Source of the DNA: Euryarchaeota archaeon UBA40
GTDB taxonomy: Archaea > Thermoplasmatota > Poseidoniia > Poseidoniales > Thalassarchaeaceae
Assembly: GCA_002506875.1 (NCBI GenBank)
Contig: DAYJ01000003.1
Location: forward strand, 1-19,598
Length of the DNA: 19,598 nt
Reading direction: 5' to 3'
Notes under the pieces: model-generated
What the model saw: only the letters and a program-made list of their open reading frames with translations
What the model was told of the DNA's origin: nothing
Database searches by the model: none
Translations under genes and position numbers: made by a program
In this document: positions 1 through 16,690 of the stretch, one piece after another
Layout: every line of letters begins with the position of its first letter
How positions within the stretch are numbered: the first letter of the stretch is position 1

Positions 1-342
1 AACAGGCTCCGGTTCCTCAACAGGTTCCGGTTCCTCGACAGGTGCAGGTTCAGGGGGCTCCTGTACCGGGGCTGCGCTGAGTGTGACGCTACGATTGAGG
101 CCTCCTCGTGTTCTTCGAAGAGATTTGTCAATGTCTGGAGCTGGAATGGAGGCCATGGATGGTAGCATCGCTCGCCGTGCGTCCCCTCTGAGGATCCTGT
201 AGACGCCTTGAGCGGACCCAATGCCTAATGTTGCCAAGACAGTGGCGCTAATGGGGTCCATCGGAGTAGATGTAGCGTGGCGAGGTATGTCTTCGTTTCG
301 GGTGGTTCTGCTCTGGAAGTAAGCCATCCTTGTGCGGTTCAT
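1..342 (-). CDS. Partial CDS (5' end; continues beyond left edge): hypothetical protein with a Pro/Glu-rich V-E-E-P-E-P hexapeptide-repeat linker
   Basis: The minus-strand frame is open from the stop at 343-345 down to position 1. It is absent from the ORF track because it has no stop inside the window. In-frame ATGs lie at 342, 327, 261, 168 and 156; none has a convincing SD, so the start is unresolved. From 156 it reads MASIPAPDIDKSLRRTRGGLNRSVTLSAAPVQEPPEPAPVEEPEPVEEPEPV, with codon choice (CCT/CCA/CTT/CTC) like the rest of the window. Plus-strand frame 2 is also open up to the TAG at 200-202 and gives a Gly/Ser-rich then Arg-rich peptide, so the strand itself is uncertain. Confidence 0.3.
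   Translation of the reverse strand, partial: MNRTRMAYFQSRTTRNEDIPRHATSTPMDPISATVLATLGIGSAQGVYRILRGDARRAMLPSMASIPAPDIDKSLRRTRGGLNRSVTLSAAPVQEPPEPAPVEEPEPVEEPEPV
3..56. repeat. 18-bp imperfect tandem repeat, three units (third unit degenerate)
   Basis: The units are caggctccggttcctcaa (3-20), caggttccggttcctcga (21-38) and caggtgcaggttcagggg (39-56). The period is a multiple of 3. On the minus strand each unit encodes VEEPEP. The array may continue beyond the left edge. Confidence 0.7.
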
Positions 343-386
343 TCATATCCTTTCGGAATCGTTGAACCACTAGCGGAGGCCATGCC

Positions 387-803
387 ATGACTGTGCGAGT
401 GGGTAGGAAAGCACGTCGTTTCCTACGCCGCATTCAGAAATCGCGGGAAATCCCTGATTTGCAAGTCATCGCGAATGAAATCCAGAATGAGGTTGATGCG
501 AGAAACATCACCTATGAGGAGGCGAACCAACTGGGGAACCAAATCCAGAATAGAGCCGACATGATTGATGTATCCGGGCTCGTTTACGCCATCAGTGATA
601 GGGATACATATCGCAGAACGCTTGAAATTTATTTGAAGGATGGGCTTCTTACTCGGACGGAGCAAATGCTCCTTTGGGATGAGCGAAGAAAGCTCGGCTT
701 GACACAGGAAGAACACGATCGATTGATTGACAAGCTCATTACCCTCTATCGGAGTCAAGGCCGCTCAATTAGGATTCAAGGTCCTTCAGGAGGTGATTCC
801 TGA
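387..803 (+). CDS. Hypothetical small cytosolic protein (138 aa) with a very basic N-terminus and a helical body; first gene of the three-gene module
   Basis: The ATG at 387 is preceded by GGAGG at 375-379. There is no hydrophobic segment. The N-terminus MTVRVGRKARRFLRRIQKSR is strongly basic. The segment YRRTLEIYLKDGLLTRTEQMLLWDERRKLGLTQEEHDRL resembles, from memory, the Y-x3-L...DG-x-[IL]-[ST]-x2-E...LG[IL][ST] helical hairpin of TerB/DjlA-N-like domains; this is unverified. The stop TGA at 801-803 overlaps the ATG of the next gene. Confidence 0.6.
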   Translation: MTVRVGRKARRFLRRIQKSREIPDLQVIANEIQNEVDARNITYEEANQLGNQIQNRADMIDVSGLVYAISDRDTYRRTLEIYLKDGLLTRTEQMLLWDERRKLGLTQEEHDRLIDKLITLYRSQGRSIRIQGPSGGDS

Positions 804-3800
804 TGTCTAGAAGTCGAACATTGGTTCTATTCTTAGTGAGTATTCTAATTTTCAGCGTTCTTACACCAATGTCGATGTCACCTGCTAGCGATACAGCGTA
901 TACTTCAGGGCGATCAGTGGATGTCGCCATTGACCAAATGGATGTCATCTCAGCATCTGCAGATATCCTTGGCACGCCAACTCTTGCTCCAGGGGATCAC
1001 GTAATCCGGGTTCGAATTACAAACACTGGAACCAGTATCGCTACCGGTACAATCGAGTTGCTAGAGGGGCCGGATTTCTCATCCCAAACTCCAGTCCTTG
1101 GTACGCAGAAGTCCATCTCAGTCCCTGCAGGGGGGTCTGAAGTCCATCTCCTCGAGTTCACAAAGATGAGCGGTAACTCTGCAGTCACAGCTTCTGTTTC
1201 TGCGAGTGGTGATTCCGAGCCCTCAAATAATCAAATGAATTTGCCAGCAGGCTTGCTTACTGTATCTTCGACACCTTCGCATATCTCCGTCTCTGATACG
1301 ATCCCGAATCATGGAACTACTGTGGCTTCTGGGCCATGGGTTGGAAACTGGGTTTTCGCGAATACGGGGAATTTGAATCTGACTGCAGAAGCATCTCTTA
1401 CCCTCACTCCTGTAGGTGGAGGGGCCTCAATAGACATTGATTCTAGCCAAACAATCGCTCCCGCTGGTTCCTTGGCTTCCACGGCAGGGCTATCTTCAGT
1501 CAATCTCTCCGTGGATGCATCGACCTTCCTTGGGACATATGCTCTTAGTGGCACAATCGATATCTGGTCACCTCTTGGCTCTTATCACACTGAGACTATT
1601 TCTTCTCGTGATGTGACCTTCACAGATGCTATAGCTACACTTTCGGCCCCCAATAATATCTCAGTATCTCCTGGAAGTGGGACCACGCTTCTTTTCATCT
1701 TACAGAATATTGGCGGTGTTAGTGACACTTTCACCATTACCTACTCCGACGTACAAGACCCTGATTGGATGGATACGAGCCTCGAGAATCCGAATGATGG
1801 TGATTCAGTGACTATAGCAGCGGGAGAAGGACAAGCGATTACAGCCCCAGTTGATGTCCCATTTGATGCCTCAAGGTCCGACGTAGATACCATTACAGTC
1901 ACCGCTACGAGTTTGAATACAGGTGAAATTGTAACTGCACGCGCTTCAGTTATGGCTGGCGATTTGTTTTCTTCGGATTTGCAAAGTAATGGGTCAGTTG
2001 TCTATGTTGATCCAGGTGCCCCAGCTTCTGTGTTTTACACTCTCAAGAATACAGGAACTTCCCCGGCACATTTCGAAATCGATGCAGGTTTGCAAGAGGT
2101 CCCAGATGATTGGACCATATCTGTATCTCCAGATGTAACCGATCTTGTATCTCCTGGTGAGACAAGGTCAATCACAATCGAGGTGACGGCTCCTTCAATT
2201 TTGGACCCCCTGGATCCGGACCAACGAAATTCTGCTGGGAGTCGGCTGACTTTACGTGTAACTTCAACTCCCTTACAAGGGGAAGCGGCCCTAGTTGCTA
2301 GCAATATTACTGATATCGAGGTTCGTGCTTCAGTCAGTGTCACAATGTTGCCATATGGCGATTTACATTACACGACTAGCGATTTAGAGTTGGGAGGTAT
2401 GGCAAAAACGCTAGATGTCGAAGTATCATTGATGAGTAATTTCCCCTCTGGGAGTCCGGGTTTAGCCGTTGTAGATCTCACGGTTCTTGCCACATCTTTC
2501 ACATCCTATGATGGTGCATCCTATGGGTTATCGGAGAATACTCGTTGGGATGCTACCCCTGCGCCTACATCGCTTAATCTTCTACTCGGAGAATCTGCAA
2601 TAGTCGTGTTATCAGTTCTCGGCCCTACAGCTCATCTTCCTGCACATGGTTTACTCAATTTCACCATTACAGCATCGACTTCTTTGTCAGGTTTAACGGG
2701 GATCACCTCTCCTGACACTTCAGCGGTCTTTTCTGTCAATATTGGCGATGTAATCGATGCAGATCTTGCGGACAGTCCAGTAATTCCCGGTTCTCCGGGA
2801 GTACAGAGCGATGCCACCCTCCGACTATCCAATATCGGTAACACTCTTTCCAATTTCACTCTTGAGATGGATGAACTTGAGGGGTGGGACCTTATTCTTG
2901 TCAACAACGCAGTGACGGGGCTGGTTCCTCAGGTCGCAACCTTCCCAACAGGTTTCGATGTGGGTACTGACATCACTATCAGTGCGACGCCCCCACTGGA
3001 TGCACGTGCAGACGAAGTCCATCTTGTCAATGTGAATGTCTACGACGAAGATGGACATTTCATGGACAATGGATCCGCTCGCTTCGTTCTTGATGAAGTC
3101 ATTGACGGCCTACTTGAGCCAGATACAATCAATATGGAGGTTCCAATCCTTGAGAGTCGTACGCAAACCGCGGTATTCCAGATTAGAAATATGGGTAATT
3201 CGGAGCAAACATTCGATATTGACATTGGTTCTTTCGTAGGAGGTACTGACTTCACAGTGTCTCCGCTTCAAGATGTCACAGTTCCTCCTGGTGCAAATGT
3301 CACTCAAGAGGTCACGGTTACTGCCCTCAACTCAGCACGAGCTGATACGACCTACTCGTTCGACATCATTCTCCTTAAGGACGGTCTAGAGTTTGATAGA
3401 ACTGATGTGAATGTTCAGATACAACAAATCCATCTTATCGAACTCAGTACCACGGATACTCTGGAGGCAATCCCTGGTGAGGTGGTGACTCTTCAGGTAG
3501 AGGCAGAAAATCTTGGCAACCTCCGAGAGATAGGCAACCTGAGTTTTGAAACACCCTTCGGATGGACTCAGACTACTACGACATTCGATATCGAACCTAA
3601 CTCCGTCGTATTGGGCCTCGAAATCTCTCTTACAGTTCCGGCTCTAACCTCGGAGGAAGTGCCGATGGCTGGGGCGGTATACGACATCCCCATCATTGCT
3701 CGTAATACGAGCGATAACATCCCAGTCGGCTCGTTCAATATCACTGTGACTATCAAGCCCGTGTTCCAACTCGTTTTCCTTGATTCGCCTGAGCGAATCG

Positions 3801-5521
3801 CGAGTATTCCGAATCAGGATCGCTCGATTGGTTACCATATCAAGAATGCCGGTAATGATGCAGTTACTCTCTCGGTGACTTGTACACTGGATTCCTCAAG
3901 TGTTAGTCGATGGACGGCGCCTACTTGCCCCGGTAGCCTTGCTCTGGCTCAAGGTGAACAGACTTGGATTAACATGACCATGAGGCCAACTGATAACCGT
4001 CATTGGAACAAGGAAACTGGCGGGATGACATTACGCTTCATTCCACAAGGAGATGTTGGGGGGGAAGCAAACTGGACCACGCCATTGATTATTGAGCGCG
4101 TCCAGACCGATGATGAAGTCGTCCTTCAGAATTCGGATGGTCCAGTAAAGACTCTAGAAATTGATTGGATGCATGTTCCAGATCTCACTCAGACAGGCGC
4201 TCTTTCCTCGAATACATACGAAGTAAGGTATGTTGAGGGAATCCGTCTTCTCAACTCAAGCCTCTATCCTGGTACTATCTGGGATTTTAGTCTAGGCTCT
4301 GATCAGACGTCTCTTATTCCAGGCACCGTAACGCCTCTTGGAGAGGCGTCACCCTATGTTCTAAATTCCTTCAATCTAAGGACTACTCTCCCTAGTCCGA
4401 CGACTATCGCTCCCGGTGATGGTTGGGACTTGGTGTTCGAGTTACATAATCTCGATGAACCATCGTTGGGAATTAACGGGATTACCACCTTCATTGTCAA
4501 GCTGCGTATGGACTCTTATGCCGACCCTCAGATTCTTGATGTCAGATTCGAATCGGGTGATCTTGTAGAGGGTACCTCGACTAATCTCATTGTCAACGTC
4601 ACGAACTCTGGAACTGCAATTCTGCCAGTGAATAGCATCCTCCTAATCTCTTGCAGTGGAGACGTCATAATCAACGGTTCTGAGACGAATTTGATTCCGC
4701 CTCTTGGGATTCAGGAGTCTGTCGAACTCACATGGGGTATTGAGGCTGCGTCTCTGCCTTGGTATGAGAATTCAGGATTCTTCGAATGCACCTTCCAATT
4801 AACTCTCATTGACGACGTCTATGGTAATGATCTAGCTAATGATGTAAGGGTTGAATCGTTGCAAATCGAGTCTTGGAGCATAGGTTTCCTACCTAGTTTG
4901 ATAGGTTGTATCCTCGTAATCTTCCTTTCTCTCTTCCTATTCCGGAGGGGTATGGATGATGATGAGCGCGCCCTCTTTGGGTCGGGATATGTGGCGATGA
5001 TAGGGCTAGGATTGCTTTCTCAAACGGCTATCATCCCTGAGATTGGCCTAATCAGTGTCGCCCTCTCTGCCCTCTGGTTGTTGGCTCTTGCATGGATTGG
5101 CTCGGGAGAGTTGCAAGCCATCCACGATGACCGTCGTAAGGCGATGCTTGGCGAGCGTTCTGCTCTTTCTTCTCACGAGGATGAGTTAGCAAATACACAG
5201 CGTGAGATATCCTGGGTTCTTCTAGGGGCTCCGATGCTCTTCGTCCTTGTGATGATGATTGATCCGAGTTTCACTGTCGATATGACTGCCCTGAATCTCG
5301 GTTCTAGCGCAGTTTACCTTGTTTTGATTTCGATGATGATTATACTCACCATCACCACACTGGAGCGAACCTATGGTGGGCTCCATAACCAACTCGCGGC
5401 TCTCGATCTTCGAACGCAGCGAATTCGTGGTATTCTTGAGAGCCGATCGATAGTTCACACATCGGCACCACCTCCTCCTTCTCCCGAAGTATTCACCGAT
5501 GTTGGAGGTGAAGAGGAATGA
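803..5521 (+). CDS. Giant envelope protein (1572 aa): N-terminal signal peptide, about 1300-aa ectodomain of repeated CARDB/NEW3 (COG1470-like) beta-sandwich domains, C-terminal 5-TM module and cytosolic Pro-rich/acidic tail
   Basis: A near-perfect SD, GGAGGTGAT, lies at 789-797, 5 nt before the ATG at 803. The N-terminus MSRSRTLVLFLVSILIFSVLTP looks like a signal or anchor sequence. Nine copies of an h-x-N-x-G-x strand motif occur roughly every 100-130 aa: ITNTGT, FANTGN, LQNIGG, LKNTGT, LSNIGN, IRNMGN, AENLGN, IKNAGN, VTNSGT. Several are followed by P-x-x-W and P-G-x-[ST] segments, e.g. LKNTGTSPAHFEIDAGLQEVPDDWTISVSPDVTDLVSPGETRSITIEVTAP, which is the pattern I associate with CARDB/NEW3 domains. 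I counted about 17 N-x-S/T sequons by hand. Five hydrophobic helices lie near the C-terminus. Confidence 0.9.
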   Translation: MSRSRTLVLFLVSILIFSVLTPMSMSPASDTAYTSGRSVDVAIDQMDVISASADILGTPTLAPGDHVIRVRITNTGTSIATGTIELLEGPDFSSQTPVLGTQKSISVPAGGSEVHLLEFTKMSGNSAVTASVSASGDSEPSNNQMNLPAGLLTVSSTPSHISVSDTIPNHGTTVASGPWVGNWVFANTGNLNLTAEASLTLTPVGGGASIDIDSSQTIAPAGSLASTAGLSSVNLSVDASTFLGTYALSGTIDIWSPLGSYHTETISSRDVTFTDAIATLSAPNNISVSPGSGTTLLFILQNIGGVSDTFTITYSDVQDPDWMDTSLENPNDGDSVTIAAGEGQAITAPVDVPFDASRSDVDTITVTATSLNTGEIVTARASVMAGDLFSSDLQSNGSVVYVDPGAPASVFYTLKNTGTSPAHFEIDAGLQEVPDDWTISVSPDVTDLVSPGETRSITIEVTAPSILDPLDPDQRNSAGSRLTLRVTSTPLQGEAALVASNITDIEVRASVSVTMLPYGDLHYTTSDLELGGMAKTLDVEVSLMSNFPSGSPGLAVVDLTVLATSFTSYDGASYGLSENTRWDATPAPTSLNLLLGESAIVVLSVLGPTAHLPAHGLLNFTITASTSLSGLTGITSPDTSAVFSVNIGDVIDADLADSPVIPGSPGVQSDATLRLSNIGNTLSNFTLEMDELEGWDLILVNNAVTGLVPQVATFPTGFDVGTDITISATPPLDARADEVHLVNVNVYDEDGHFMDNGSARFVLDEVIDGLLEPDTINMEVPILESRTQTAVFQIRNMGNSEQTFDIDIGSFVGGTDFTVSPLQDVTVPPGANVTQEVTVTALNSARADTTYSFDIILLKDGLEFDRTDVNVQIQQIHLIELSTTDTLEAIPGEVVTLQVEAENLGNLREIGNLSFETPFGWTQTTTTFDIEPNSVVLGLEISLTVPALTSEEVPMAGAVYDIPIIARNTSDNIPVGSFNITVTIKPVFQLVFLDSPERIASIPNQDRSIGYHIKNAGNDAVTLSVTCTLDSSSVSRWTAPTCPGSLALAQGEQTWINMTMRPTDNRHWNKETGGMTLRFIPQGDVGGEANWTTPLIIERVQTDDEVVLQNSDGPVKTLEIDWMHVPDLTQTGALSSNTYEVRYVEGIRLLNSSLYPGTIWDFSLGSDQTSLIPGTVTPLGEASPYVLNSFNLRTTLPSPTTIAPGDGWDLVFELHNLDEPSLGINGITTFIVKLRMDSYADPQILDVRFESGDLVEGTSTNLIVNVTNSGTAILPVNSILLISCSGDVIINGSETNLIPPLGIQESVELTWGIEAASLPWYENSGFFECTFQLTLIDDVYGNDLANDVRVESLQIESWSIGFLPSLIGCILVIFLSLFLFRRGMDDDERALFGSGYVAMIGLGLLSQTAIIPEIGLISVALSALWLLALAWIGSGELQAIHDDRRKAMLGERSALSSHEDELANTQREISWVLLGAPMLFVLVMMIDPSFTVDMTALNLGSSAVYLVLISMMIILTITTLERTYGGLHNQLAALDLRTQRIRGILESRSIVHTSAPPPPSPEVFTDVGGEEE
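4877..5362 (+). other. C-terminal five-helix transmembrane module of the giant protein
   Basis: The hydrophobic segments are IGFLPSLIGCILVIFLSLFLF, LFGSGYVAMIGLGLLSQTAII, IGLISVALSALWLLALAWIG, ISWVLLGAPMLFVLVMMI and LGSSAVYLVLISMMIILTITTL. Charged loops (RRGMDDDER, HDDRRKAMLGER) fall on the predicted cytosolic side if the ectodomain is outside. The roughly 50-aa tail ending PPPPSPEVFTDVGGEEE is then cytosolic. Confidence 0.7.
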
Positions 5522-6363
5522 TGGAAAACAACCCATTTGATGATTCAGGTGTGGGGGGAGATGCCTCATCCCGATTCCTTGAGCAGTTGACTCAACGTTC
5601 CGTCCGTGTCCGACACTACCTCTGGAATCATCGCCCATTGAAGGCAAGAAAAGATCTCAGGGAAGCGAATCGCGATGCGGAATTCCTTGAGAAACAAGTG
5701 GTTAGGTTACACCGTTCACTTCTCGCTCTGGAGCAGCACCTATCTTCACTTGATGATTTAACAGAAGATGAGAGAAGAGCGATGGGAATGGTGACTGATG
5801 GTCTCATCGATCTGGATCAGGGTCATTGGGAATCTGCCCTCGAATCTTTCCGTTCAGCAATTTCTGATTTGTCTGAGTCCGGAGGCCGTGTGAATCCTTT
5901 CCTTGTTGGTCGATTCTTCCTCACAGTCGAGGCTCGTTGGCCTGCTGAGATGGAGCATGGACTTCTTCTGCTTACTATTGAGAATCTTGGTACTGACCTA
6001 CTCCCTCCATTCCGGTTAGCTGCGCCCGCTCCTCCGGACTGGATTGCGGAACCTAAGGCGGCCGAAGTGCCAGCTATACCGCCCGGGGGCTTCATTGAGA
6101 TGGGTATCAAAATTCATCCAACTGGGACCATCTCTGAAAATCTTGTATTGGCCAAGAGGGTATCCATTGTTACAGGATATCTTGCAGACATGGGCGATCT
6201 AACGGTATCCACTCGCATAGAGAATCGGACTCTCAAATCCTTGGAAGGCTTTGTCGTCGATGCTTGGCTCCCTCGTGGGTTTACCGCTAGGCGCCTTCCG
6301 TTCATCCAGAATCTTGCACCTGGAGAGGTCGTACATATCAACACTGAAATCGATGCCCGTTGA
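5518..6363 (+). CDS. Hypothetical cytosolic protein (281 aa): N-terminal coiled-coil/helical region plus two CARDB-like beta-sandwich-type segments, no signal peptide
   Basis: The ATG at 5518 overlaps the giant gene's stop (ATGA at 5518-5521) and is preceded by GGAGGTGA at 5504-5511. The N-terminal half is helical and charged (KDLREANRDAEFLEKQVVRLHRSLLALEQHLSSLDDLTEDERR). The C-terminal half carries LLLLTIENLGTDLLPPFRL...PPGGFIEMGIKIHP and LTVSTRIENRTLKSLEGFVVDAWLPRGF...APGEVVHINTEI, which echo the strand motifs of the giant protein. No hydrophobic leader or TM segment is present. Confidence 0.75.
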   Translation: MMENNPFDDSGVGGDASSRFLEQLTQRSVRVRHYLWNHRPLKARKDLREANRDAEFLEKQVVRLHRSLLALEQHLSSLDDLTEDERRAMGMVTDGLIDLDQGHWESALESFRSAISDLSESGGRVNPFLVGRFFLTVEARWPAEMEHGLLLLTIENLGTDLLPPFRLAAPAPPDWIAEPKAAEVPAIPPGGFIEMGIKIHPTGTISENLVLAKRVSIVTGYLADMGDLTVSTRIENRTLKSLEGFVVDAWLPRGFTARRLPFIQNLAPGEVVHINTEIDAR

Positions 6364-6414
6364 GCAATTTTGACCAAAATTTCACATCTTCTTTGAAATG
6401 CCTCTTGGGGCTAC

Positions 6415-6423
6415 TATGATATA
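6415..6423 (+). promoter_or_regulatory. Putative archaeal TATA-like box for the archaellin gene
   Basis: TATGATATA lies 36-44 nt upstream of the ATG at 6459. GGTGGA at 6446-6451 is a possible SD. The spacing resembles the candidate TATA elements upstream of the rhodopsin and hppA genes in this window. This is sequence inspection only. Confidence 0.3.
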
Positions 6424-6458
6424 CTTCGATGAATTGCGTAAAGTCGGTGGACATACCC

Positions 6459-7109
6459 ATGAACGCAAGTAAGACACAATACAAGAAGAACGACGATGGT
6501 GCATCGATCGGGATCGGAGCGATGATCGTCTTCATCGCACTTATCTTGGTGGCCGCAGTAGCCTCTACGATTATCATCAAGACCGCAGAAGAACTTCAGC
6601 AACGTGCTGAGGCAACTGGTGACGACACCCGTGACGAAATCTCGGGTAAGCTCCAGATTGTCATGGCCTATGTTTCGATAGATGACAACGCAGGCCCTGC
6701 AACCGCTGCCGATGAAGTCACCCTAATTGTCCAGATGGCTGCTGGTTCTGACTCCACTTTGCTTACCGACATCCGATGGTTGATTGTTTGTAACGACGGA
6801 ACTCAAAATGTTGACATCAACACTGGAGCCCTAGAAGACGCCGGTGGCGCTGCTGGCGCTGCACGTGTATTCGCAGAAGAAATCGACGGCACAGCAATGA
6901 CTTCTGGCGACGCTGTAGATGCTGGTCAGACCTTTGCAATCGTAATCGATACTGATGATACTGGCGACGATGGTGCTAATCCATCTGTTGATGGATGTCA
7001 GGCTGGAGTCGGCGACAACCAAGAGCTTCGACTTATTGTCGATGGCGGCGGTGAAACCTACTCTCAGTTGACTTTCAATTCCATTACTGCTGGATCACTG
7101 ATTGTTTGA
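6459..7109 (+). CDS. arlB: Archaellin (archaeal flagellin) with class III (type IV pilin-like) signal peptide
   Basis: The N-terminus MNASKTQYKKNDDG|ASIGIGAMIVFIALILVAAVASTIIIKTAEELQQRAEATGDDTRDEISGKLQIVMAY matches the conserved archaellin N-terminus (GIGTLIVFIAMVLVAA...). The ORF track starts at the ATG at 6429. I prefer the ATG at 6459, which has an SD-like GGTGGA upstream and a more typical leader length. The C-terminal part is a variable D/G/A/T-rich domain. Confidence 0.9.
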   Translation: MNASKTQYKKNDDGASIGIGAMIVFIALILVAAVASTIIIKTAEELQQRAEATGDDTRDEISGKLQIVMAYVSIDDNAGPATAADEVTLIVQMAAGSDSTLLTDIRWLIVCNDGTQNVDINTGALEDAGGAAGAARVFAEEIDGTAMTSGDAVDAGQTFAIVIDTDDTGDDGANPSVDGCQAGVGDNQELRLIVDGGGETYSQLTFNSITAGSLIV

Positions 7110-7123
7110 TGTGGTTTGTGGAA

Positions 7124-7143
7124 TCGGCCCAATCGCGGGCCGA
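7124..7143 (+). terminator. GC-rich hairpin after a T-rich tract downstream of arlB; possible partial terminator or mRNA-stabilising element
   Basis: The stem TCGGCCC (7124-7130) pairs with GGGCCGA (7137-7143) around a 6-nt loop, aatcgc. It follows the T-rich sequence TTGTTTGATGTGGTTTGTGG, which spans the arlB stop codon. The location between the highly expressed filament gene and the accessory genes fits differential expression. Confidence 0.3.
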
Positions 7144-7185
7144 GCCGCAAGACCGTGAGGTCTATCCATAAGGAGTTGAACAGAG

Positions 7186-8001
7186 ATGGTTGACAGTCAG
7201 GAAGGTCGCATGGCTGATCGTTTAGATCAGGCGTCCAAAGTGACGGTTGACCAGATTGACATCCCACCTGAATACCGTCCAACCGATTTAGAAGCCTGGT
7301 TGTTCACCCCCGGGGCTACTCGAGTCGGATTCATTGGTACGGGTTCAGGAGATGGTGTTGCAACTGCAAGCGCTCCTGCGGAAACTGCTGTATCCAGCGG
7401 TCCGCCGCCAGCAGAACTCCTCAAGTTGCTCGCCGATCGGTTTGAGCGTTTGGAAGCCTCTATTGGCCATATGGAGACGAACCTAACTATCGCTCAGAAT
7501 TCGACTCCAAGAGTGGAATCAGCAGGGGATGTGATGCATAAGATTGGAGCGGATGGCGAAGTTATTGCCGTCAATTTGGGAGATTCTGATTCAGATGATC
7601 TAATCGGCGTCGATGCAACTCATGCTGGGCCAGGATTGTTGGATTTGTATGAGGCCCAATCTCTCGAACTGAATCCGTTCCTTCGTTCCAAGGATGGTGG
7701 GATTTCCGGACCTGGAGTCGATCCTGCGAAGATTGTTGCTCTAATCCTCGATCATTTGTCGGGTGTAGATGCAAAGTCCTTCATCGCCGCAGCAACGAAA
7801 TCTGGTTTCTTGTCTGCTGATGAAGCGAGAACTCTTGGTGGAATTGCATCTCTTGCCGAGGAAGGTCAATCCAAGGGTGGTAACCCTACCTTGCCAAATC
7901 GCCCATTGCTAACCTTTGTCGCGATGGTTGAATCGTGGCGCTCTCAATCCAATGTAAAGTCATCAAAGCGATCCTCCTCTGCCTCTGGTGAGGGGGAATG
8001 A
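7186..8001 (+). CDS. Putative divergent ArlC/ArlD-like archaellum accessory protein (271 aa, acidic, cytosolic)
   Basis: It occupies the arlC/D/E slot between arlB and arlF. AAGGAG lies about 10 nt upstream of the ATG. A short coiled-coil (ELLKLLADRFERLEASIGHMETNL) and the segment LLDLYEAQSLELNPFL resemble my memory of the FlaC-type ...LYE-x-[vs]-x3-NPF signature. The C-terminal LPNRPLLTFVAMVESW resembles only the beginning of the FlaD/E domain, and the protein ends soon after it. This is motif-level evidence and needs an HMM check. Confidence 0.45.
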   Translation: MVDSQEGRMADRLDQASKVTVDQIDIPPEYRPTDLEAWLFTPGATRVGFIGTGSGDGVATASAPAETAVSSGPPPAELLKLLADRFERLEASIGHMETNLTIAQNSTPRVESAGDVMHKIGADGEVIAVNLGDSDSDDLIGVDATHAGPGLLDLYEAQSLELNPFLRSKDGGISGPGVDPAKIVALILDHLSGVDAKSFIAAATKSGFLSADEARTLGGIASLAEEGQSKGGNPTLPNRPLLTFVAMVESWRSQSNVKSSKRSSSASGEGE

Positions 8002-8004
8002 GAT

Positions 8005-8400
8005 GTGGGTGGTTCAAGCAGCGTTGGTGCGCTGATTGTTGGCACGGTATTCTTGAGTATCTTCGCCCATGCAATGGTTCTAGCTATTGGGAATATGGAA
8101 CGAATGTCGTCAATCGAGGACCGCGAAGATCCTGACATCAAGGTCCAGATTGTGAATGCAACTTTTACTTCCGGAACACTCTACGTAAATATCACCAATG
8201 CTGGAACAGATTCGGTACCATTGGACGAGATATTCTTATCATACGAGGGGGGGACGCCTCGTAATTTCTCTAATTTTTACACCGGTAGCGATTATCTCTT
8301 TCCAGGGGAGACTGTAATGGGTAGCACATCAGTATCTGGGACACCCACACGGGCTTATGTGGCATCCTATGGCGTAGGTTTCGGAGCAACCATCCAGTGA
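8005..8400 (+). CDS. arlF: Archaellum protein ArlF (FlaF)-like: N-terminal TM helix plus beta-sandwich
   Basis: A GTG start at 8005 has GGTGA at 7988-7992 upstream. The protein is 131 aa with an N-terminal hydrophobic helix (VGALIVGTVFLSIFAHAMVLAI) followed by beta-rich sequence (KVQIVNATFTSGTLYVNITNAGTDSVPLDEIFL). Its position is immediately before arlG. Size and architecture are typical of FlaF. The F versus G assignment rests on gene order and N-terminal pattern. Confidence 0.7.
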   Translation: MGGSSSVGALIVGTVFLSIFAHAMVLAIGNMERMSSIEDREDPDIKVQIVNATFTSGTLYVNITNAGTDSVPLDEIFLSYEGGTPRNFSNFYTGSDYLFPGETVMGSTSVSGTPTRAYVASYGVGFGATIQ

Positions 8401-8409
8401 GGTGAAATA

Positions 8410-8880
8410 ATGGCAGATGGAGGCGTTTCTGAGATGATCATGTTGGTTACTAGTCTTCTTGTCGCCGGCATCGTTTCAGGTGTCCTCGTAGGTTCTTATG
8501 CGAATATAGTAGATGGCATGGAAGGAACAGCATCTCAATCAGAGGTTGATTCAAAGACCAGTGCTGGACTTGTATCTGACCCTATGAATATTGATTGGAA
8601 TTCGGTGACCAATCAGACTACTGTTAGTATCCAGAATACAGGGACATTGTCTCTAGACATCGATGAGACGTCCATGATGCTCAATGGTTCAACAATGAAT
8701 GTTACGAAATCCGGTGGCCCGACAAATTGGCTTGCTGGAACTGTAATCAGTTTCACTGTATCTGGAAATGTAACCTTCTCTAGCAACCAAGAGGTGCCCC
8801 TCAATGTGATTGTTCTGACTGAAACAAAGTCCCCCGCCACAGGTGCTCATTCATTCACGGAGGTCGTTCGGATTGTCTGA
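8410..8880 (+). CDS. arlG: Archaellum protein ArlG (FlaG)-like
   Basis: GAGGTGA at 8399-8405 precedes the ATG at 8410. The N-terminus MADGGVSEMIMLVTSLLVAGIVSGVL fits the FlaG pattern (S-E-x-I-x-[FL]-[IV]...A...V-x-G-V-L). It is followed by a beta-sandwich-like region (TTVSIQNTGTLSLDIDETSMMLNG). The protein is 156 aa. Confidence 0.75.
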   Translation: MADGGVSEMIMLVTSLLVAGIVSGVLVGSYANIVDGMEGTASQSEVDSKTSAGLVSDPMNIDWNSVTNQTTVSIQNTGTLSLDIDETSMMLNGSTMNVTKSGGPTNWLAGTVISFTVSGNVTFSSNQEVPLNVIVLTETKSPATGAHSFTEVVRIV

Positions 8881-9562
8881 GGATGCCTTCCCGTTCGGTC
8901 TGGAACAGGACAGTCTAGCGAATAGCCTAGGTGCAGCGATTCCGAATCGTTCTCTCATGATTGTTGAAGGTGAAGTTGGTGAAGGTAAGAGTCTCATTGG
9001 CCAGCGCCTTGCATACGGGCTTGTTCAGAATGGGACCAAGGTTGCATACGTGACAACAGAACTTACCACTCGAGGCTGGCTTGAGCAAGTTGATTCCATC
9101 GGCTATGGCATGACCTCAGCTATTGATGATGGGCGTTTTCTTCTCATGTCGAGTTATGGTGTTTTAACCGAGCAGGTAGAGGAGGAAGTGACTCTCTTTG
9201 ACTTACTCCGAAATGACGGACTTAAGGCTGCAGATTTCATCATTATTGATCGTGCATCTCAACTCCTCCCAGAAGGCGTTGATCCCAAACATCTTCTCAC
9301 AGAGATTCGTCGATTCACATCTGATGGGCGTACTCTAATGCTCGCTATGGATCCTCATGAAGTCCCGGAAGTTATTTTCCGTGAGATGAAGGGGGCCGCT
9401 GAGGTCGTTATTGGCCTGATGTCCCTGACTCAGGGGGGTCAGTTGAAGCGTACTCTGGCAGTTACCCGTTTCCTTCGAGCCTCTGGACCGGTTCAAGCCA
9501 GAATCGGTTGGCGTGTCGAGCCGAGTATGGGCTTCATCGTCGATATCACGGCGGTCAGTTGA
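8843..9562 (+). CDS. arlH: Archaellum ATP-binding protein ArlH (FlaH), RecA/KaiC-like
   Basis: Walker A is GEVGEGKS within LMIVEGEVGEGKSLIGQRLAYGL, and a Walker B-like FIIIDRAS is present. Size and position between arlG and arlI fit FlaH. The track start is the GTG at 8843, which overlaps arlG by 38 nt. An in-frame TTG at 8873 with GGAGGT at 8857-8862 upstream is an equally plausible start. Confidence 0.85.
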   Translation: MLIHSRRSFGLSEDAFPFGLEQDSLANSLGAAIPNRSLMIVEGEVGEGKSLIGQRLAYGLVQNGTKVAYVTTELTTRGWLEQVDSIGYGMTSAIDDGRFLLMSSYGVLTEQVEEEVTLFDLLRNDGLKAADFIIIDRASQLLPEGVDPKHLLTEIRRFTSDGRTLMLAMDPHEVPEVIFREMKGAAEVVIGLMSLTQGGQLKRTLAVTRFLRASGPVQARIGWRVEPSMGFIVDITAVS

Positions 9563-9573
9563 GGTGATTTGGG

Positions 9574-11295
9574 ATGGCAGACGAAGATAATCCTGAGTTC
9601 CAAAAGGGCGATTTAGAATCAGTAATGGCGCGGCACGATCACGTCAAGAGATGGGTTGAGGATTTTGAGGCTCAGCACGGGTCTCGCCCTTACTTCTACG
9701 GTCCTCTGGACCGTGGTGCTAAGAGTTTAGAACCTAGAAACCTCATCTATACTCTCAAGCCACCTTTGTTCGCTCACATCTACAAGCCTCCTGATGACGA
9801 CGAGCAGGGAGCCGGAACCACGCTATGGTTTGGTATTGAACCGGTGCTGAATGAAGAGGAGGAGGTAATACGTATGGAGATTGTAGAACGTCTACTACGT
9901 GATGCTCCTAGTGCTCCATCTTTCACATCTGATTCTGAGTTCGAGAGTATTCTCGTGGGTATGATCGAAAAGATGACTACTACGAAGTCCGTAGGCATCC
10001 AAGCTGAGGGTTTACTTGGACCAGCACGCGACTATCTTGGTCTTGGTGAGCCTCTAATACAAGTAAAAGAGGAGCAATTAGAGCGATTGAAGTATATCAT
10101 TATCCGCGATCTCGTGAAGTCCGGGCCGTTGGAAGCTCTTCTTTCTGATGAACAACTGGAAGACATCCACTCGGTTGGTTTACGCTACGTCAACATGGAT
10201 CACAAGGTGTTCGGTATGGTTACCTCCAACATCCGCTTCCGGGATCGAGAAGTGCTGACTCGCTATCTTCGTTCAATGTCCGAACGTATTGGCCGCCCGG
10301 TATCAGATAGTAAACCGATTATTGATGGTGCACTTCTCGATGGTTCTCGAATAAATATCATCTTCAGTGACGATGTATCGATGCTTGGACCATCGTTTAC
10401 GATTCGTAAGTTCGCTGAGGAAACCATCTCGTTCACTCAACTTATCCAATGGGGTACGATGTCGGCCCAGATTGCTGCATACATTTGGCTATGTCTTGAG
10501 AATGGTATGTCACTTCTCGTGTCAGGTGAAACGGCGTCAGGAAAGACAACAACGCTCAACGCGATTCTTCCTTTCATTGACCATAATGTCAAGATTTACT
10601 CTGCAGAGGATACTCCTGAAGTGAAGGTTCGCCATCGTCTTTGGCAACGTCTCGTTACTCGCGATTCGAAGAACGAGGATTCTCGCGTCGAAATGTTCGA
10701 TCTTCTGAAGGCGGCTCTCCGTTCTCGGCCTCGCTACATCATTATCGGTGAGATTCGTGGAGTTGAAGGGGCTACAGCCTTCCAAGCAATGCAGACTGGT
10801 CACCCAGTGATTGCAACTTTCCACGCATCTTCTATTGTCAAGATGATTCAGAGATTTACGGGAGATCCGATTAATGTCCCCGCCCGTTTCTTCGACAACC
10901 TGAATTTCGCTATATTCCAAGAGGTAGTTGAAGCCCCAGGTGGTGGAATCGCACGACGTGTAACTGGGATTGACGAGGTTATCGGATACAACAAGTTCGC
11001 AGACGGTATCCTTACTCGAGGTATGTTCGAGTGGGATCCTGTATCCGACAAGCACTACTTCCGAGGTATGTTCCAATCTCATCTGATGGAGAATAAGATG
11101 GCGCCAATGATGGGTTTCGCTAACAAGCGCGAAATCTATGATGAAATGGAGCGACGGACGGAAGCGATTCAGAGGATGGTTGACCGCGATCTTACTCATT
11201 ACGACGATGTCTTCGATTTGCTGGATGTATACTATCAGCAGGGCTGGGAGCAGTTCTCCGCTGCTATCGACACCTGGGTAGGAATCAACCATTGA
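9574..11295 (+). CDS. arlI: Archaellum motor ATPase ArlI (FlaI), type II/IV secretion ATPase superfamily
   Basis: GAGGTGAT at 9561-9568 precedes the ATG. Motifs present are Walker A GETASGKTT, an Asp box IYSAEDTPE, Walker B RPRYIIIGEIRG and a His box GHPVIATFHA. The 573-aa length is typical of FlaI. Confidence 0.95.
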   Translation: MADEDNPEFQKGDLESVMARHDHVKRWVEDFEAQHGSRPYFYGPLDRGAKSLEPRNLIYTLKPPLFAHIYKPPDDDEQGAGTTLWFGIEPVLNEEEEVIRMEIVERLLRDAPSAPSFTSDSEFESILVGMIEKMTTTKSVGIQAEGLLGPARDYLGLGEPLIQVKEEQLERLKYIIIRDLVKSGPLEALLSDEQLEDIHSVGLRYVNMDHKVFGMVTSNIRFRDREVLTRYLRSMSERIGRPVSDSKPIIDGALLDGSRINIIFSDDVSMLGPSFTIRKFAEETISFTQLIQWGTMSAQIAAYIWLCLENGMSLLVSGETASGKTTTLNAILPFIDHNVKIYSAEDTPEVKVRHRLWQRLVTRDSKNEDSRVEMFDLLKAALRSRPRYIIIGEIRGVEGATAFQAMQTGHPVIATFHASSIVKMIQRFTGDPINVPARFFDNLNFAIFQEVVEAPGGGIARRVTGIDEVIGYNKFADGILTRGMFEWDPVSDKHYFRGMFQSHLMENKMAPMMGFANKREIYDEMERRTEAIQRMVDRDLTHYDDVFDLLDVYYQQGWEQFSAAIDTWVGINH

Positions 11296-11316
11296 GTAGG
11301 ATTCGGGGGGCAGCAA

Positions 11317-13119
11317 ATGGAACGCCTCCCAACTTGGCAGATTTCCATCCGGCGTCTCGGTATGCCGGTCGCCTCCTACGCCATCCAAGTAGTTCTACCT
11401 GCAACTGTGTTTGGCCTCATCTTAGGGGCTGTCATCTTCTTCTTCGCCTCTTCTTTGTTTACAGGGGCTTCAGGGATCCTGCTTGCGTTGCTCTTCCCTC
11501 TACTTAGTGGGGGGGTGGCAGTGGTATGGCCTCTGATTCAGACTCAACGTACAGCGATTGCAATCGAGCGTGAGATGCACATGTTCATCACGCGGATGGG
11601 AATACTTTCCTTGGGCGATGCTGGTGCGCAGTCCATGTTCGATATTCTGAAACAGATGGGGGACTATGGTGCTCTTGCAGAAGAGGTACAGGCAATTGAG
11701 ACGTTAGTTGAACGATGGCATACTAATCTCCCGGAAGCGGCTCGAATTGTTGGTCGGCAGAGTCCTTCGCCTATTTGGGGGGATTTCCTTGACAGGATGG
11801 CATTCTCTGTCGAAGCAGGTCAACCCCTCGAGGAATTTATGCGTTCAGAGCAAGACACCTTCCAAGAGGAGTTTAACACGCTGTATGATACCCGCCTCGA
11901 AGCTGTGGATACACTCCGTGAAATTTACATTTCAATCACTACGACTGGCATGTTCCTTCTTGTTGTAGCAGGGATTCATCTCGTGTTATTCATGACAGGG
12001 TCATTAGACGATGACCCTTGGACAGTACTTGTTCGTATTCGCTGGATCCTTCTCGCTGCACTCATCTACAGTTTACTCCAATTGTTTGGCCTGGTTTTCT
12101 TCATTGTTCTCATCCCAGACGATGATTTGTTCGCGAGGAATAATGTAGCAACTCCTTACATAATTCGTATGCGACGTACGTGGGCTTTGGCTACAATAAT
12201 TGGACTAGGAATCATCCTTTCCATTTTCACTGCCGGTTTCGTGGTAGATTACACCTTTATCGCTGATAATTGGGACCGCTACGGCCTGCTATCTATCGCA
12301 GTAATTGTGACTCCGTTTGCTTTCCCTGCCTATCTAGTCAGTCGAGAAGAGAAGTCGGTCCGGCGGCGTGACGAGTCATACCCTGGATTCATCCGCGCTC
12401 TTGGCGGAACGGCTCAGGCTCGCGCAGCTGAACCGAGCGCTACGGTTCGTGCATTGAAAGACATCGACTTCGGCGCGCTAAATGCCTCAATCGACATGCT
12501 GGAGAGGCGTCTATCAATGCGAATCAATAGTGATAATTCTTGGACATGGTTTGCTGCAGATACAAACTCGATGATGGTTTCACGTTTCATTCGAATCTAT
12601 CTTGAAGGTGCTCAAACGAGTGGAGAACCTGCAGGTGTAGCGGAACTTGTATCCAAGAATACGACGAATCTTTTGTCACTTAGGCGACGTCGGGCCTTAT
12701 CCTCGGGAACGATGCAGGGTGTTGCGTTTGGTGTACTTATTGCAATGATCACAAGTTTGAACATCACAATTTCCATCGTTCAAGGTCTAGGTTCATCCAT
12801 TAGCGGTGTTGCACAAGGTCTCGTTGGGACCGATGCATCTGCCATCCCTGCTATGGCAGGTGGATTCGGACTTCCAGTCCTCGACGACAGCACAGTTGTT
12901 GAGCAGAATATATTCCTGTTCAAAGTCCTCGTCTCTATACTCGTGATATTCATGATTATGGTTCTCGGTCTTATTTCAGCTAGGATTCGAGGAGGTGGTA
13001 TCGCATTATCAGTTGGTCAAATGATTACGATGCTTTGGGTTGCTGGTTTAACCAGTTTGTTGACCGCAGTCCTACTCGATGCGTCCATCGGTTTGTTCAT
13101 CTCTAATGCTGCGAACTGA
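11317..13119 (+). CDS. arlJ: Archaellum polytopic membrane platform protein ArlJ (FlaJ), TadB/C (T2SS-F)-like
   Basis: This 600-aa protein has many hydrophobic helices separated by two soluble helical regions (MFITRMGILSL...MFDILKQMGDYG and YPGFIRALGGTAQ...). Its position directly after arlI and its size and architecture are typical of FlaJ. Confidence 0.85.
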   Translation: MERLPTWQISIRRLGMPVASYAIQVVLPATVFGLILGAVIFFFASSLFTGASGILLALLFPLLSGGVAVVWPLIQTQRTAIAIEREMHMFITRMGILSLGDAGAQSMFDILKQMGDYGALAEEVQAIETLVERWHTNLPEAARIVGRQSPSPIWGDFLDRMAFSVEAGQPLEEFMRSEQDTFQEEFNTLYDTRLEAVDTLREIYISITTTGMFLLVVAGIHLVLFMTGSLDDDPWTVLVRIRWILLAALIYSLLQLFGLVFFIVLIPDDDLFARNNVATPYIIRMRRTWALATIIGLGIILSIFTAGFVVDYTFIADNWDRYGLLSIAVIVTPFAFPAYLVSREEKSVRRRDESYPGFIRALGGTAQARAAEPSATVRALKDIDFGALNASIDMLERRLSMRINSDNSWTWFAADTNSMMVSRFIRIYLEGAQTSGEPAGVAELVSKNTTNLLSLRRRRALSSGTMQGVAFGVLIAMITSLNITISIVQGLGSSISGVAQGLVGTDASAIPAMAGGFGLPVLDDSTVVEQNIFLFKVLVSILVIFMIMVLGLISARIRGGGIALSVGQMITMLWVAGLTSLLTAVLLDASIGLFISNAAN

Positions 13120-13767
13120 TTAGCGACGCCGTTCTTCAGCAATTCGCTTTTTCGTTGCCGCCCATGAACAGATTGGGCATTGTGTCAGGTCATGATTACG
13201 GGCAGGACAGTACTCACGTCCAAAGAAGATGATCTGAAGGTGACGAGAGTTCCATGTCTCTCTCATGAAGACAGCTTTCAGATCACGCTCCGTGCGTTCC
13301 ACGGTGCTGCCATTGCTCAAACCCCACCTTGCGGCAAGTCGATGGATGTGTGTATCAACCGGAAAGGCAGGAATGCCGAATGCCTGTGCCATGACGACAC
13401 TCGCTGTCTTGTGGCCTACTCCTGCAAGTGATTCCAAGAATTCCCATTCAGGGATGATGCCATGGCCTGAATTGATAATTTGTTCAGCCATTCGCCGTAG
13501 ATTTTTCGCTTTGGTAGGAGCTAGTCCAATTTCACGTATGATTTCTTGAATCTCCACGACATCTAGTTTAGCCATTTTTTCGGGTGTCGAAGCAGCAGAA
13601 AATAGAGCAGGTGTTACTTCGTTGACTTTCTTGTCTGTTGTTTGAGCTGAGAGCATAACAGCGACCAGTAGCGTGTATGGATCGGAGTGATCCAGTGGGA
13701 CTGGAGTTTCAGGATAGAGTTCGTCCAGCATCTGCCCGATGCGTTCCGCTTTCTCTATTCGTTTCAT
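13120..13767 (-). CDS. nth: Endonuclease III (HhH-GPD DNA glycosylase/AP lyase)
   Basis: Conserved features are DPYTLLVAVMLSAQTTDKKVN, the helix-hairpin-helix LAGVGHKTASVVM with the catalytic Lys, the catalytic Asp in FPVDTHIHR, and a C-terminal Cys cluster CPARNHDLTQCPIC. The start ATG at 13767 overlaps the polX stop (ATGA on the minus strand). Confidence 0.93.
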   Translation of the reverse strand: MKRIEKAERIGQMLDELYPETPVPLDHSDPYTLLVAVMLSAQTTDKKVNEVTPALFSAASTPEKMAKLDVVEIQEIIREIGLAPTKAKNLRRMAEQIINSGHGIIPEWEFLESLAGVGHKTASVVMAQAFGIPAFPVDTHIHRLAARWGLSNGSTVERTERDLKAVFMRETWNSRHLQIIFFGREYCPARNHDLTQCPICSWAATKKRIAEERRR

Positions 13768-15725: not shown

Positions 15726-15775
15726 GCAGGAGACATTTTGCCGACGGGTCTTGAAGCATCGTTTAGATGAGGGTT

Positions 15776-15822
15776 GAGGGGGGGATGGGCAACATGGGAC
15801 CCACCCCCCTCCTCGTGGGGGT
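15776..15822 (-). promoter_or_regulatory. G-run / C-run / G-run element able to form two mutually exclusive GC hairpins in the rhodopsin-polX spacer
   Basis: In plus-strand coordinates, GAGGGGGG (15776-15783) is complementary to CCCCCCTC (15804-15811), with an inner TGGG/CCCA pairing at 15786-89/15800-03. Alternatively, ACCCCC (15803-15808) is complementary to GGGGGT (15817-15822). The central C-run is shared, so only one structure can form at a time. The element would be transcribed on the minus strand between the two genes. Confidence 0.3.
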
Positions 15823-15830
15823 CATTTCAG

Positions 15831-15847: not shown

Positions 15848-15853
15848 TGAATC

Positions 15854-16666: not shown

Positions 16667-16690
16667 GAACTAACTCCCATGCAGTATAGA

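Follow-up and report, generated by a model that had tools for sequence, protein, structure and literature searches.

Poseidoniales are the most abundant planktonic archaea of surface oceans. A stretch of 19,598 nucleotides (nt) from one of them, Euryarchaeota archaeon UBA40 of the family Thalassarchaeaceae (contig DAYJ01000003.1, positions 1 to 19,598 of the forward strand; hereafter the window), carries an archaellum (arl) gene cluster directly preceded by three open reading frames (ORF1, ORF2 and ORF3, together the trio). A sequence-only reading of this DNA, made without database searches, had described the trio as an uncharacterised, translationally coupled envelope module standing head-to-tail with the archaellum operon. 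The locus thus raises the question whether the trio belongs to the archaellum and, if so, what it might do there. Our answer to the first part is that the trio is very probably a functional part of the archaellum system; our answer to the second part, an envelope scaffold or anchor, is considerably more tentative.

The trio is a conserved unit of coupled genes

The arrangement of three co-directional, coupled genes was confirmed in all its details (coordinates, overlapping codons and Shine-Dalgarno (SD) sites), and it proved to be a conserved unit. The features of the trio and its borders are as follows.

1–327, reverse strand: upstream gene in divergent orientation, cut off by the left end of the window (frame open to the window edge, ATG at 327–325); it bounds the module on the left.
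328–386, forward strand: divergent intergenic region of 59 nt, with the box TGCGGTTCATTCATATCC at 333–350 and the ORF1 SD GGAGG at 375–379.
387–803, forward strand: ORF1, 138 amino acids (aa); ORF call, alignment and AlphaFold2 (AF2) model.
789–805, forward strand: ORF1/ORF2 junction, with the SD GGAGGTGAT at 789–797 and TGATG at 801–805.
803–5521, forward strand: ORF2, 1572 aa; signal peptide aa 1–29, ectodomain 30–1355, module of five transmembrane segments (5-TM) 1362–1517, tail 1518–1572.
890–4867, forward strand: ORF2 ectodomain; Pfam matches and conserved N/G/W columns.
4886–5353, forward strand: ORF2 5-TM anchor; hydropathy and alignment.
5099–5203, forward strand: ORF2 TM3–TM4 loop, aa 1433–1467; alignment, with the cytosolic side predicted by the positive-inside rule.
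5504–5521, forward strand: ORF2/ORF3 junction, with the SD GGAGGTGA at 5504–5511 within the last ORF2 codons and ATGA at 5518–5521.
5518–6363, forward strand: ORF3, 281 aa; ORF call, alignment and AF2 model.
6364–6458, forward strand: ORF3–arlB spacer, with weak T-runs after the ORF3 stop, the box ACTATGATATACTTC at 6413–6427 and an SD-like GGTGG at 6446–6450.
6459–7109, forward strand: arlB, archaellin; Pfam Arch_flagellin, 79.9 bits.

The ORF1 stop overlaps the ORF2 start in TGATG and the ORF2 stop overlaps the ORF3 start in ATGA, with an alternative ORF3 start at ATG 5521 being equally possible. The sequence GGAGGTGA occurs only twice in the window when both strands are counted (789–796 and 5504–5511), once per junction and each time 6–7 nt upstream of the start codon that overlaps the preceding stop. 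As two or more copies also arose in 33 of 200 shuffles, the count alone is not significant, and it is the placement and conservation of these sites, not their number, that matter. Of 84 related loci, 80 have an ORF3 start at −20 to +1 nt relative to the ORF2 stop codon, and a GGAGGT-type SD precedes it in nearly every case; this overlap with a strong SD argues for co-production of the two proteins. For ORF1 and ORF2, an SD heuristic puts the junction distance between −11 and +5 nt in 46 of 76 loci, the remainder being ambiguous start calls or members of a clade with an inserted gene.

That insertion was observed in one Thalassarchaeaceae subclade (including MED-G33), where an extra gene of 1050 aa stands between ORF1 and ORF2 (L024, 10441–13593). 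Its product has an N-terminal TM segment, a long charged coiled coil and two copies of a domain reading SLxWD..NDLDL...GG.LD.DMN...ENI.W..G.Y; a 281-aa gene with the same SLxWD..NDLDL domain is located just upstream of ORF1 (L024, 9144–9989). Neither of the two extra genes of L024 has a Pfam match. The same layout is found in L022, L027, L028, L030, L034, L036, L040, L064, L069 and L074.

As the gene to the left is divergent, with its start at 327 on the reverse strand, the trio stands at the head of a transcription unit of its own. The TGCGGTTCATTCATATCC box and the ORF1 SD are kept in 16 relatives whose ORF2 is only 53–97% identical, with the neighbouring bases varying, and region 328–386 is likely to serve as promoter and 5' leader of the trio.

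The trio and the arl genes occur together

Relatives of ORF1 were found in 257 species-representative genomes, the record titles of which are nearly all Poseidoniales or unclassified Euryarchaeota. We examined gene neighbourhoods from both ends, in 84 loci seeded with ORF1 (the best 80 of the 257 genome matches and four metagenome loci) and in 80 loci seeded with ArlH, inspected out of at least 534 metagenome matches with a divergent-clade sequence as the first query. Every ORF1-seeded contig that reaches far enough has the order ORF1-ORF2-ORF3-arlB (one or two copies)-X271-arlF-arlG-arlH-arlI, in which X271 denotes a conserved 271-aa protein; such loci represent about 60 species-level genomes and both Poseidoniales families. 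Conversely, ORF3 lies directly upstream of arlB in all 32 ArlH-seeded loci that extend more than 300 nt beyond it, followed by ORF2 where covered and by ORF1 whenever the flank extends to it. Neither a trio without arl genes nor an arl cluster without the trio was found among the inspected ORF1- and ArlH-seeded loci. The tie to the archaellum genes that the sequence-only reading had proposed is therefore borne out in both directions: no arl-less homologue was seen, no protein matched a characterised system, no ABC/COG1470 cassette was present, and the three genes were kept together.

ORF1, ORF2, ORF3 and arlB remain adjacent in both families even where identity has fallen to about 25%, whereas the genes upstream vary between clades. 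Between families, ORF1 is about 50–52% identical, similarly to the cytoplasmic motor parts ArlH (52–58%) and ArlJ (52–55%). ORF2 and ORF3 (25–33%, ORF3 27–31%) diverge like the periplasmic stator proteins, both ArlG (27–34%) and the ArlF-like protein. Since the trio is fixed upstream of arl genes in every marine Group II archaeon examined, it is probably a lineage-specific archaellum accessory. According to published surveys, arl clusters are present in all Poseidoniaceae genera and in about half of the Thalassarchaeaceae genera (PMC6461757; PMC6336850).

Three contigs with both trio and arl genes (L046, L049 and L076) come from metagenome-assembled genomes titled Rhodobiaceae, Salipiger bermudensis and Verrucomicrobiales, which is evident binning contamination.

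ORF2 is a giant surface protein with a conserved cytosolic loop

The architecture previously read from the sequence (an ectodomain, a 5-TM module and an acidic cytosolic tail) stands, except that the tail (aa 1518–1572) is only mildly acidic, with an isoelectric point (pI) of 5.6, and that TM2 is weakly hydrophobic. Inspection of 60 aligned N-termini revealed a Sec-type signal peptide with n-h-c regions (aa 1–29) and A-x-A-like ends such as PFADA/S and PLTVA/D. A class III signal peptide of the archaeal pilin-like kind was rejected, as no [KR][GAS] motif directly precedes the hydrophobic helix in these N-termini.

The ectodomain is very acidic (pI 4.05) and bears 17 N-glycosylation sequons. 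Its matches above the Pfam cut-offs are NEW3/NPCBM_assoc (PF10633; 34.4 bits at aa 403–465, gathering cut-off 24.4), FixG_C (37.3 bits) and HYDIN-Ig (35.4 bits), and the L024 orthologue reaches 49.2 bits for NEW3. The score against choice-of-anchor T (NF041740), 54 bits, is below the NCBIfam cut-off of 70, and no S-layer family of Pfam or NCBIfam matched. Aligning 65 orthologues gave 106 columns with at least 90% conservation in all three clades. An N-x-G(-N) signature with a W about 20 residues further on recurs approximately every 113 aa (N74, N187, N302, N416, N546, N677, N796, N903, N1015 and N1268), and the ectodomain would therefore consist of about 11 beta-sandwiches of the NEW3/CARDB-like type.

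Hydropathy places the membrane segments at 1362–1380 (TM1), about 1389–1410 (TM2), 1414–1432 (TM3), 1468–1486 (TM4) and 1499–1517 (TM5); four are strongly hydrophobic and TM2 weakly so, and all five are kept across both families in the alignment. Given that the short loops are free of K and R (the positive-inside rule) and that one clade carries a specific insertion between TM2 and TM3, all five probably span the membrane, with loop 1433–1467 and the tail inside the cell. Of all 40-residue bins in ORF2, the one at aa 1441–1480 shows the strongest conservation, and it lies largely within the TM3–TM4 loop, where E1436, D1443, G1450 and H1458 are invariant; the membrane-proximal domains of the ectodomain are also rich in invariant residues. 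A PDB sequence-profile search with the TM module gave no meaningful match (E >= 0.05) and hence no solved relative. We also considered an ion-conducting stator role of the MotA/ExbB type for this module and dropped it, as there is no conserved charge inside the TM segments and the TM3–TM4 loop has only about 35 residues.

The terminal E-rich codons of ORF2 form the SD of ORF3 (GAGGAGGTGA, read as E-E-V in relatives; GGEEE in the window). Because the SD encodes those residues, the conserved acidic C-terminus is at least partly an RNA-level signal. ORF2 aligns colinearly from end to end between the two families (1425 residues, 26% identity), and its orthologues measure about 1570–1720 aa; this fixed length and colinearity fit a structural element better than a fast-evolving adhesin.

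ORF1 and ORF3 are predicted cytoplasmic partners

The sequence-only reading had been unable to connect any of the three proteins with a characterised family. Scans against Pfam and NCBIfam, which included 19, 22 and 10 orthologues of ORF1, ORF3 and X271, respectively, led to the same result: only generic immunoglobulin (Ig)-like domains were found, in ORF2 alone, and each member of the trio is outside any characterised family. PDB sequence-profile searches with ORF1 and ORF3 gave nothing meaningful either (E >= 0.05).

ORF1 had been called a very basic, helical, cytosolic protein. It is helical (six helices in the AF2 model, pLDDT 87.9) and has no signal peptide, TM or hydrophobic segment; its basic character is confined to the first 25 residues (the N-terminal helix, pI 12), the entire protein having a pI of 9.4 with 24 K+R against 21 D+E. 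The alignment contains the invariant motif YAISDRDxYRRxxExYL...LTRTEQ..LW. Approximately from residue 64 to 126, ORF1 matches at the profile level a helical unit (YRR.L...L.DG.IT..E..IL..LR..L.IS..EH) which is tandemly repeated in proteins scoring on TerB, Tic110 and ENT (PF05099, PF16940 and PF03735). In contrast to those repeat proteins, ORF1 contains a single unit and has no direct Pfam match; as not one of 19 orthologues matched TerB (PF05099) directly at E <= 10, the link is transitive only, and it is a resemblance, not membership. A Foldseek search of the AF2 model against the PDB had no match (best E 1.0) and found no TerB-like structure. Among distant matches to the ORF1 profile, P0310, P0322 and P0313 are helix-turn-helix (HTH) proteins with two to three tandem copies of the unit, the HTH domain of P0310 being of AsnC type; the repeat scores weakly on TerB, Tic110 and ENT, and the family seems uncharacterised.

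ORF3, described beforehand as a cytosolic coiled-coil/beta-sandwich protein, indeed has neither a signal peptide nor a TM or hydrophobic segment, and its AF2 model (pLDDT 77.8) consists of a disordered N-terminus, four helices (aa 16–120) and a beta-sandwich (aa 131–278). EzrA and coiled-coil matches of the helical bundle are weak and were judged compositional. An NPF tripeptide at aa 126–128 (5893–5901 in the window) is invariant. The sandwich carries the N-x-G...W signature known from ORF2, and matches NEW3 (PF10633) weakly (16.9 bits, cut-off 24.4), as do 21 of 22 orthologues (best E 0.0011). We rejected it as a copy of the ORF2 repeat, the two being in register without significance (hidden Markov model of the ORF3 C-terminal part against the ORF2 repeats, E >= 0.012). 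Foldseek against the PDB returned generic sandwiches only (arrestin, transglutaminase, FixG-related and TRAP, E >= 2e-3).

Putative transcription signals between ORF3 and arlB differ between clades

The distance of 95 nt between the trio and arlB given by the sequence-only reading assumes an arlB start at ATG 6459. An in-frame ATG at 6429 was rejected, as it stands 2 nt after the conserved AT-rich box ACTATGATATACTTC; because the box abuts this ATG, the start at 6459 and the 95-nt gap are confirmed. This 15-mer is exact in 21 related loci in which ORF2 is only 53–97% identical and the rest of the spacer varies; the box is present in L006–L016, L087–L097, L106 and L113. Close relatives have runs of T7–T9 right after the ORF3 stop, the window itself having weak T-runs. 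In the window's clade arlB thus probably has a separate promoter, and the T-runs are likely to terminate transcription of the trio, both roles being read from conserved sequence.

Other Thalassarchaeaceae clades have different AT-rich boxes ahead of arlB. The spacer measures 45–96 nt across loci; in Poseidoniaceae it is 45–66 nt long, has no AT-rich box and contains a conserved hairpin, UCC.CCCNC-loop-GNGGG.GGA (for example L019, 15285–15345, as well as L062, L043 and L001). Compensatory changes occur in its stem (CCCUC/GAGGG, CCCGC/GCGGG and CCCAU/AUGGG), and an A-run and the arlB SD follow. The hairpin comes from single-sequence folds; RNAalifold gave no structure, the arms being misaligned by differing loop lengths. 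It may reflect co-transcription with RNA processing, or a stabilising element. Expression of the trio together with arlB would then depend on the clade. The proposed head-to-tail joining to the archaellum operon is correct, while expression with arlB is doubtful in the window's clade, where the T-runs and the AT-rich box intervene.

X271 and the remaining genes of the window

The cytoplasmic scaffold or switch proteins of archaella are lineage-specific and non-universal: ArlX, which has an N-terminal TM helix and a cytosolic coiled coil, in Thermoproteota, and ArlC/D/E in Euryarchaeota. ORF1, ORF3 and X271 are likewise lineage-specific parts of their cluster, and could fill the same cytoplasmic niche. 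X271 is located where ArlC/D/E or ArlX would be, and has an invariant LYEAQ..NPFL motif in the alignment; no Pfam or NCBIfam family was matched by any of its 10 orthologues. The FlaC_arch, Arch_fla_DE and NCBIfam Arl models did not match ORF1, ORF3 or X271, even with the 19, 22 and 10 orthologues included and at relaxed E-values. As for ArlX, none of the three proteins has a TM helix or a family match, the presence of an ArlX model in the libraries not being confirmed.

Surveys have called the Poseidoniales archaellum locus divergent (PMC6336850, PMC9287336), and ArlC/D/E/X are undetectable in the cluster by arCOG markers as well (PMC9287336). ArlCDE connect to CheF/CheY, which Poseidoniales lack (PMC6461757), as they do che genes in general (PMC6461757, PMC6864105). 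Because the cluster has neither detectable ArlCDE/ArlX nor chemotaxis partner genes, some archaellum parts must be uncharacterised.

ORF3, with (L)NPF(L), and X271, with NPFL, share a short peptide that may be a common docking motif. Homology of the two proteins was rejected, as hhalign aligns only 16 columns around NPF(L), which is not significant (E 0.2).

The other genes of the window are listed below.

7186–8001, forward strand: X271, 271 aa; conserved, LYEAQ..NPFL motif.
8005–8400, forward strand: ArlF-like, 131 aa; assigned by position and an N-terminal TM segment only.
8410–8880, forward strand: ArlG; Pfam (Arch_flagellin, KaiC-type ATPase, T2SSE and T2SSF were found across 8005–13119).
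8843–9562, forward strand: ArlH; Pfam, same region.
9574–11295, forward strand: ArlI; Pfam, same region.
11317–13119, forward strand: ArlJ; Pfam, same region.
13120–13767, reverse strand: HhH-GPD base-excision repair protein.
13764–15725, reverse strand: PolX with PHP domain.
15854–16666, reverse strand: rhodopsin.
17162–17443, reverse strand: NifU-like, 93 aa.
17598 onward, forward strand: H+-pyrophosphatase, running off the right end.

With its listed start at GTG 8843, ArlH shares 38 nt with the end of ArlG (8843–8880), and its true start may be downstream. The divergent gene at 1–327 has no match in a Pfam scan, and scanning the window for tRNAs and Rfam families gave no match either.

An envelope scaffold is the preferred explanation

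Our preferred explanation is that the trio forms a trans-envelope accessory complex of the archaellum, acting specifically as an envelope scaffold or anchor; we give it a probability of roughly 0.4. ORF2 would be exported by the Sec pathway and become a surface string of fixed length, composed of about 11 glycosylated Ig-like domains and held in the membrane by the 5-TM module. Its cytosolic loop and its tail or juxtamembrane helix would dock the co-translated ORF3 and ORF1. Such a complex, placed at or around the archaellum base, could be a local S-layer-like envelope scaffold, one that offers a fixed hold to the ArlF/ArlG stator, to the motor or to both and lets the filament through the envelope. 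Such a function would be relevant here, as neither ArlCDE nor ArlX can be detected in the cluster of this lineage. The explanation takes account of the two-way tie to arl, the tight coupling (above all of ORF2 to ORF3), the ectodomain of constant length in a protein most constrained in a cytosolic loop, the two partners that have no export signal, the divergence of ORF1 in step with ArlH and ArlJ and of ORF2 and ORF3 in step with ArlG and the ArlF-like protein, and the missing ArlC/D/E/X.

A more far-reaching version, in which an ORF2 oligomer round the base is a membrane-rooted substitute for the S-layer gripped by ArlF/ArlG, and ORF3, ORF1 and X271 make a cytoplasmic ring as ArlCDE/ArlX do elsewhere, would turn the trio into a self-contained trans-envelope stator scaffold. 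We consider this version unlikely.

Several points weigh against the scaffold explanation. In the window's clade, arlB apparently has a promoter to itself and transcription of the trio seems to be terminated separately, so expression of the trio need not be stoichiometric with the motor. Coupling of ORF1 to ORF2 is not universal, because one Thalassarchaeaceae subclade inserts the 1050-aa gene there. Among S-layer-like proteins, no known member resembles ORF2 in having a 5-TM anchor and cytosolic partners. The inspected loci are the best 80 of 257 genome matches and 80 of at least 534 metagenome matches, and that the trio is absent from non-archaellated genera we infer from its adjacency to arl genes and from published arl distributions. 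Finally, that the three proteins would form a complex, sit at the motor and anchor it goes beyond the observed architecture and synteny and is inferred.

The alternative that survives best is that ORF2 is an Ig-repeat adhesin, co-inherited beside the archaellum and used for particle attachment instead of being a motor or stator part, with ORF1 and ORF3 as membrane-proximal adaptors. Rinke et al. have proposed an adhesion function for the archaellum of Poseidoniales, which are devoid of chemotaxis genes (PMC6461757). Domains of the NEW3/CARDB/FixG-like kind are typical of surface-binding proteins, the ectodomain is acidic and rich in sequons, and promoter and terminator signals separate ORF3 from arlB in the window's clade. 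However, the order-wide conservation of length, domain number and colinearity at about 25% identity is unusual for adhesins. The strongest constraint on ORF2 falls on the cytosolic loop, not on a distal binding tip, and synteny with arl is absolute in both directions in the inspected loci. An adhesin is thus conceivable, yet distinctly less probable than a scaffold.

It is also possible to imagine a sensory or regulatory input in place of chemotaxis. ORF2 would sense contact or a ligand and signal through its loop to ORF3 and ORF1, and further to ArlH/ArlI or to transcription of the cluster. The lack of che genes in the order (PMC6461757, PMC6864105) is in line with this idea, and so is the conservation of the cytosolic loop, which no other part of ORF2 equals. 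ORF1 is conserved to the same degree as ArlH and ArlJ, its helical unit recurs in tandem behind AsnC-type HTH domains of other proteins, and an NPF(L) peptide is invariant in both ORF3 and X271. On the other hand, no kinase, receiver, HAMP, PAS or HTH domain is present in any protein of the trio, Foldseek gave no regulator-like fold for ORF1, and the NPF similarity is not significant (E 0.2). Eleven Ig domains in a fixed number exceed what a sensor needs. We therefore find this explanation improbable.

Secretion, glycosylation, acidity, membrane anchoring and multiple Ig domains are the general make-up of many archaeal S-layer proteins. ORF2 has all these features, and a literature search revealed no S-layer protein known for the order Poseidoniales, so the S-layer-like coat suggested as one option by the sequence-only reading had to be considered: ORF2 would be a general S-layer or cell-coat protein, located beside arl only by descent. 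Yet every copy of ORF1, ORF2 and ORF3 seen adjoins an arl cluster, and arl is missing from about half of the Thalassarchaeaceae genera (PMC6461757, PMC6336850), which would then be left without their coat. ORF2 matches no S-layer family of Pfam or NCBIfam, and anchoring by five TM segments, with cytosolic partners dedicated to it, is foreign to S-layers. A general coat is thus very unlikely.

Least probable of all is a functionally unrelated operon kept beside arl by inheritance, for although the trio has its own conserved upstream region, terminator-like T-runs in the window's clade and no homology to any Arl protein, both families keep the genes adjacent at identities down to about 25% while the neighbours upstream change, the spacer stays at 45–96 nt (with a conserved hairpin, not a promoter-like box, in Poseidoniaceae), and loss or retention of the trio seems to go hand in hand with that of arl.

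Relation to known systems

For the scaffold explanation, the nearest precedents are S-layer-like multi-Ig proteins of Methanococcales (arCOG05057) and Thermococcales archaellum/type IV pilus loci (Makarova 2016, PMC4858521; bioRxiv 10.64898/2026.04.22.720090), which have been proposed to modify the envelope locally (bioRxiv 10.64898/2026.04.22.720090; PMC4858521). Like the arCOG05057-type proteins, ORF2 is a secreted multi-Ig protein (signal peptide, about 11 sandwiches) encoded in or next to an archaellum locus, this likeness being one of domain make-up and gene position. Unlike them, it has a 5-TM module with a conserved cytosolic loop, lies upstream of arlB and is translationally coupled to two cytoplasmic proteins.

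The ArlF/ArlG stator, for which the S-layer provides the anchorage (Banerjee 2015 and Tsai 2019, both cited in PMC12448462), is, as the trio is proposed to be, an archaellum-specific extracellular beta-sandwich apparatus that fixes the motor to the envelope. However, ArlF-like and ArlG genes are also present in the cluster, and the trio would be the gripped partner of this stator, not its substitute. There is no homology between the two.

With the COG1470/NEW3 (PF10633)/CARDB membrane proteins of archaea, ORF2 shares a signal peptide, tandem N-x-G sandwiches and a C-terminal anchor, but differs in the 5-TM form of the anchor, the dedicated cytosolic partners and the exclusive association with arl. 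No ABC-transporter gene stands beside the trio among the ORFs of the window or in the gene tables of L001–L004.

The novelty that the sequence-only reading had attached to the module is reduced by these precedents (bioRxiv 10.64898/2026.04.22.720090; PMC4858521) and by Tully 2019, where, according to the text on Fig. 4, conserved unannotated orthologues are drawn in a 'putative MGII motility operon' (PMC6336850). What is already known is that the operon contains hypothetical genes (Tully 2019) and that other archaellum loci encode Ig envelope proteins. What our analysis adds is a description of the three proteins, of the 5-TM anchor and its conserved cytosolic loop, and of the coupled cytoplasmic partners, together with the association with arl, obligatory both ways in the inspected loci, and the clade-specific transcription signals.

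What the trio means for Poseidoniales archaella

A cryo-electron microscopy study of Thermoplasmatales left open what anchors ArlF/G in Thermoplasmatota that have no S-layer (PMC12448462). If the self-contained stator scaffold were true, it would be a third, previously unrecognised way of anchoring the archaellar motor, and would answer how archaella can turn in Thermoplasmatota that have no paracrystalline S-layer. Irrespective of this version, the trio and X271 are no less firmly part of the cluster than the core arl genes. They are concrete candidates for the envelope-side anchor of the stator and for the cytoplasmic scaffold, and offer a set of markers by which 'divergent' archaellum loci in marine metagenomes can be annotated.

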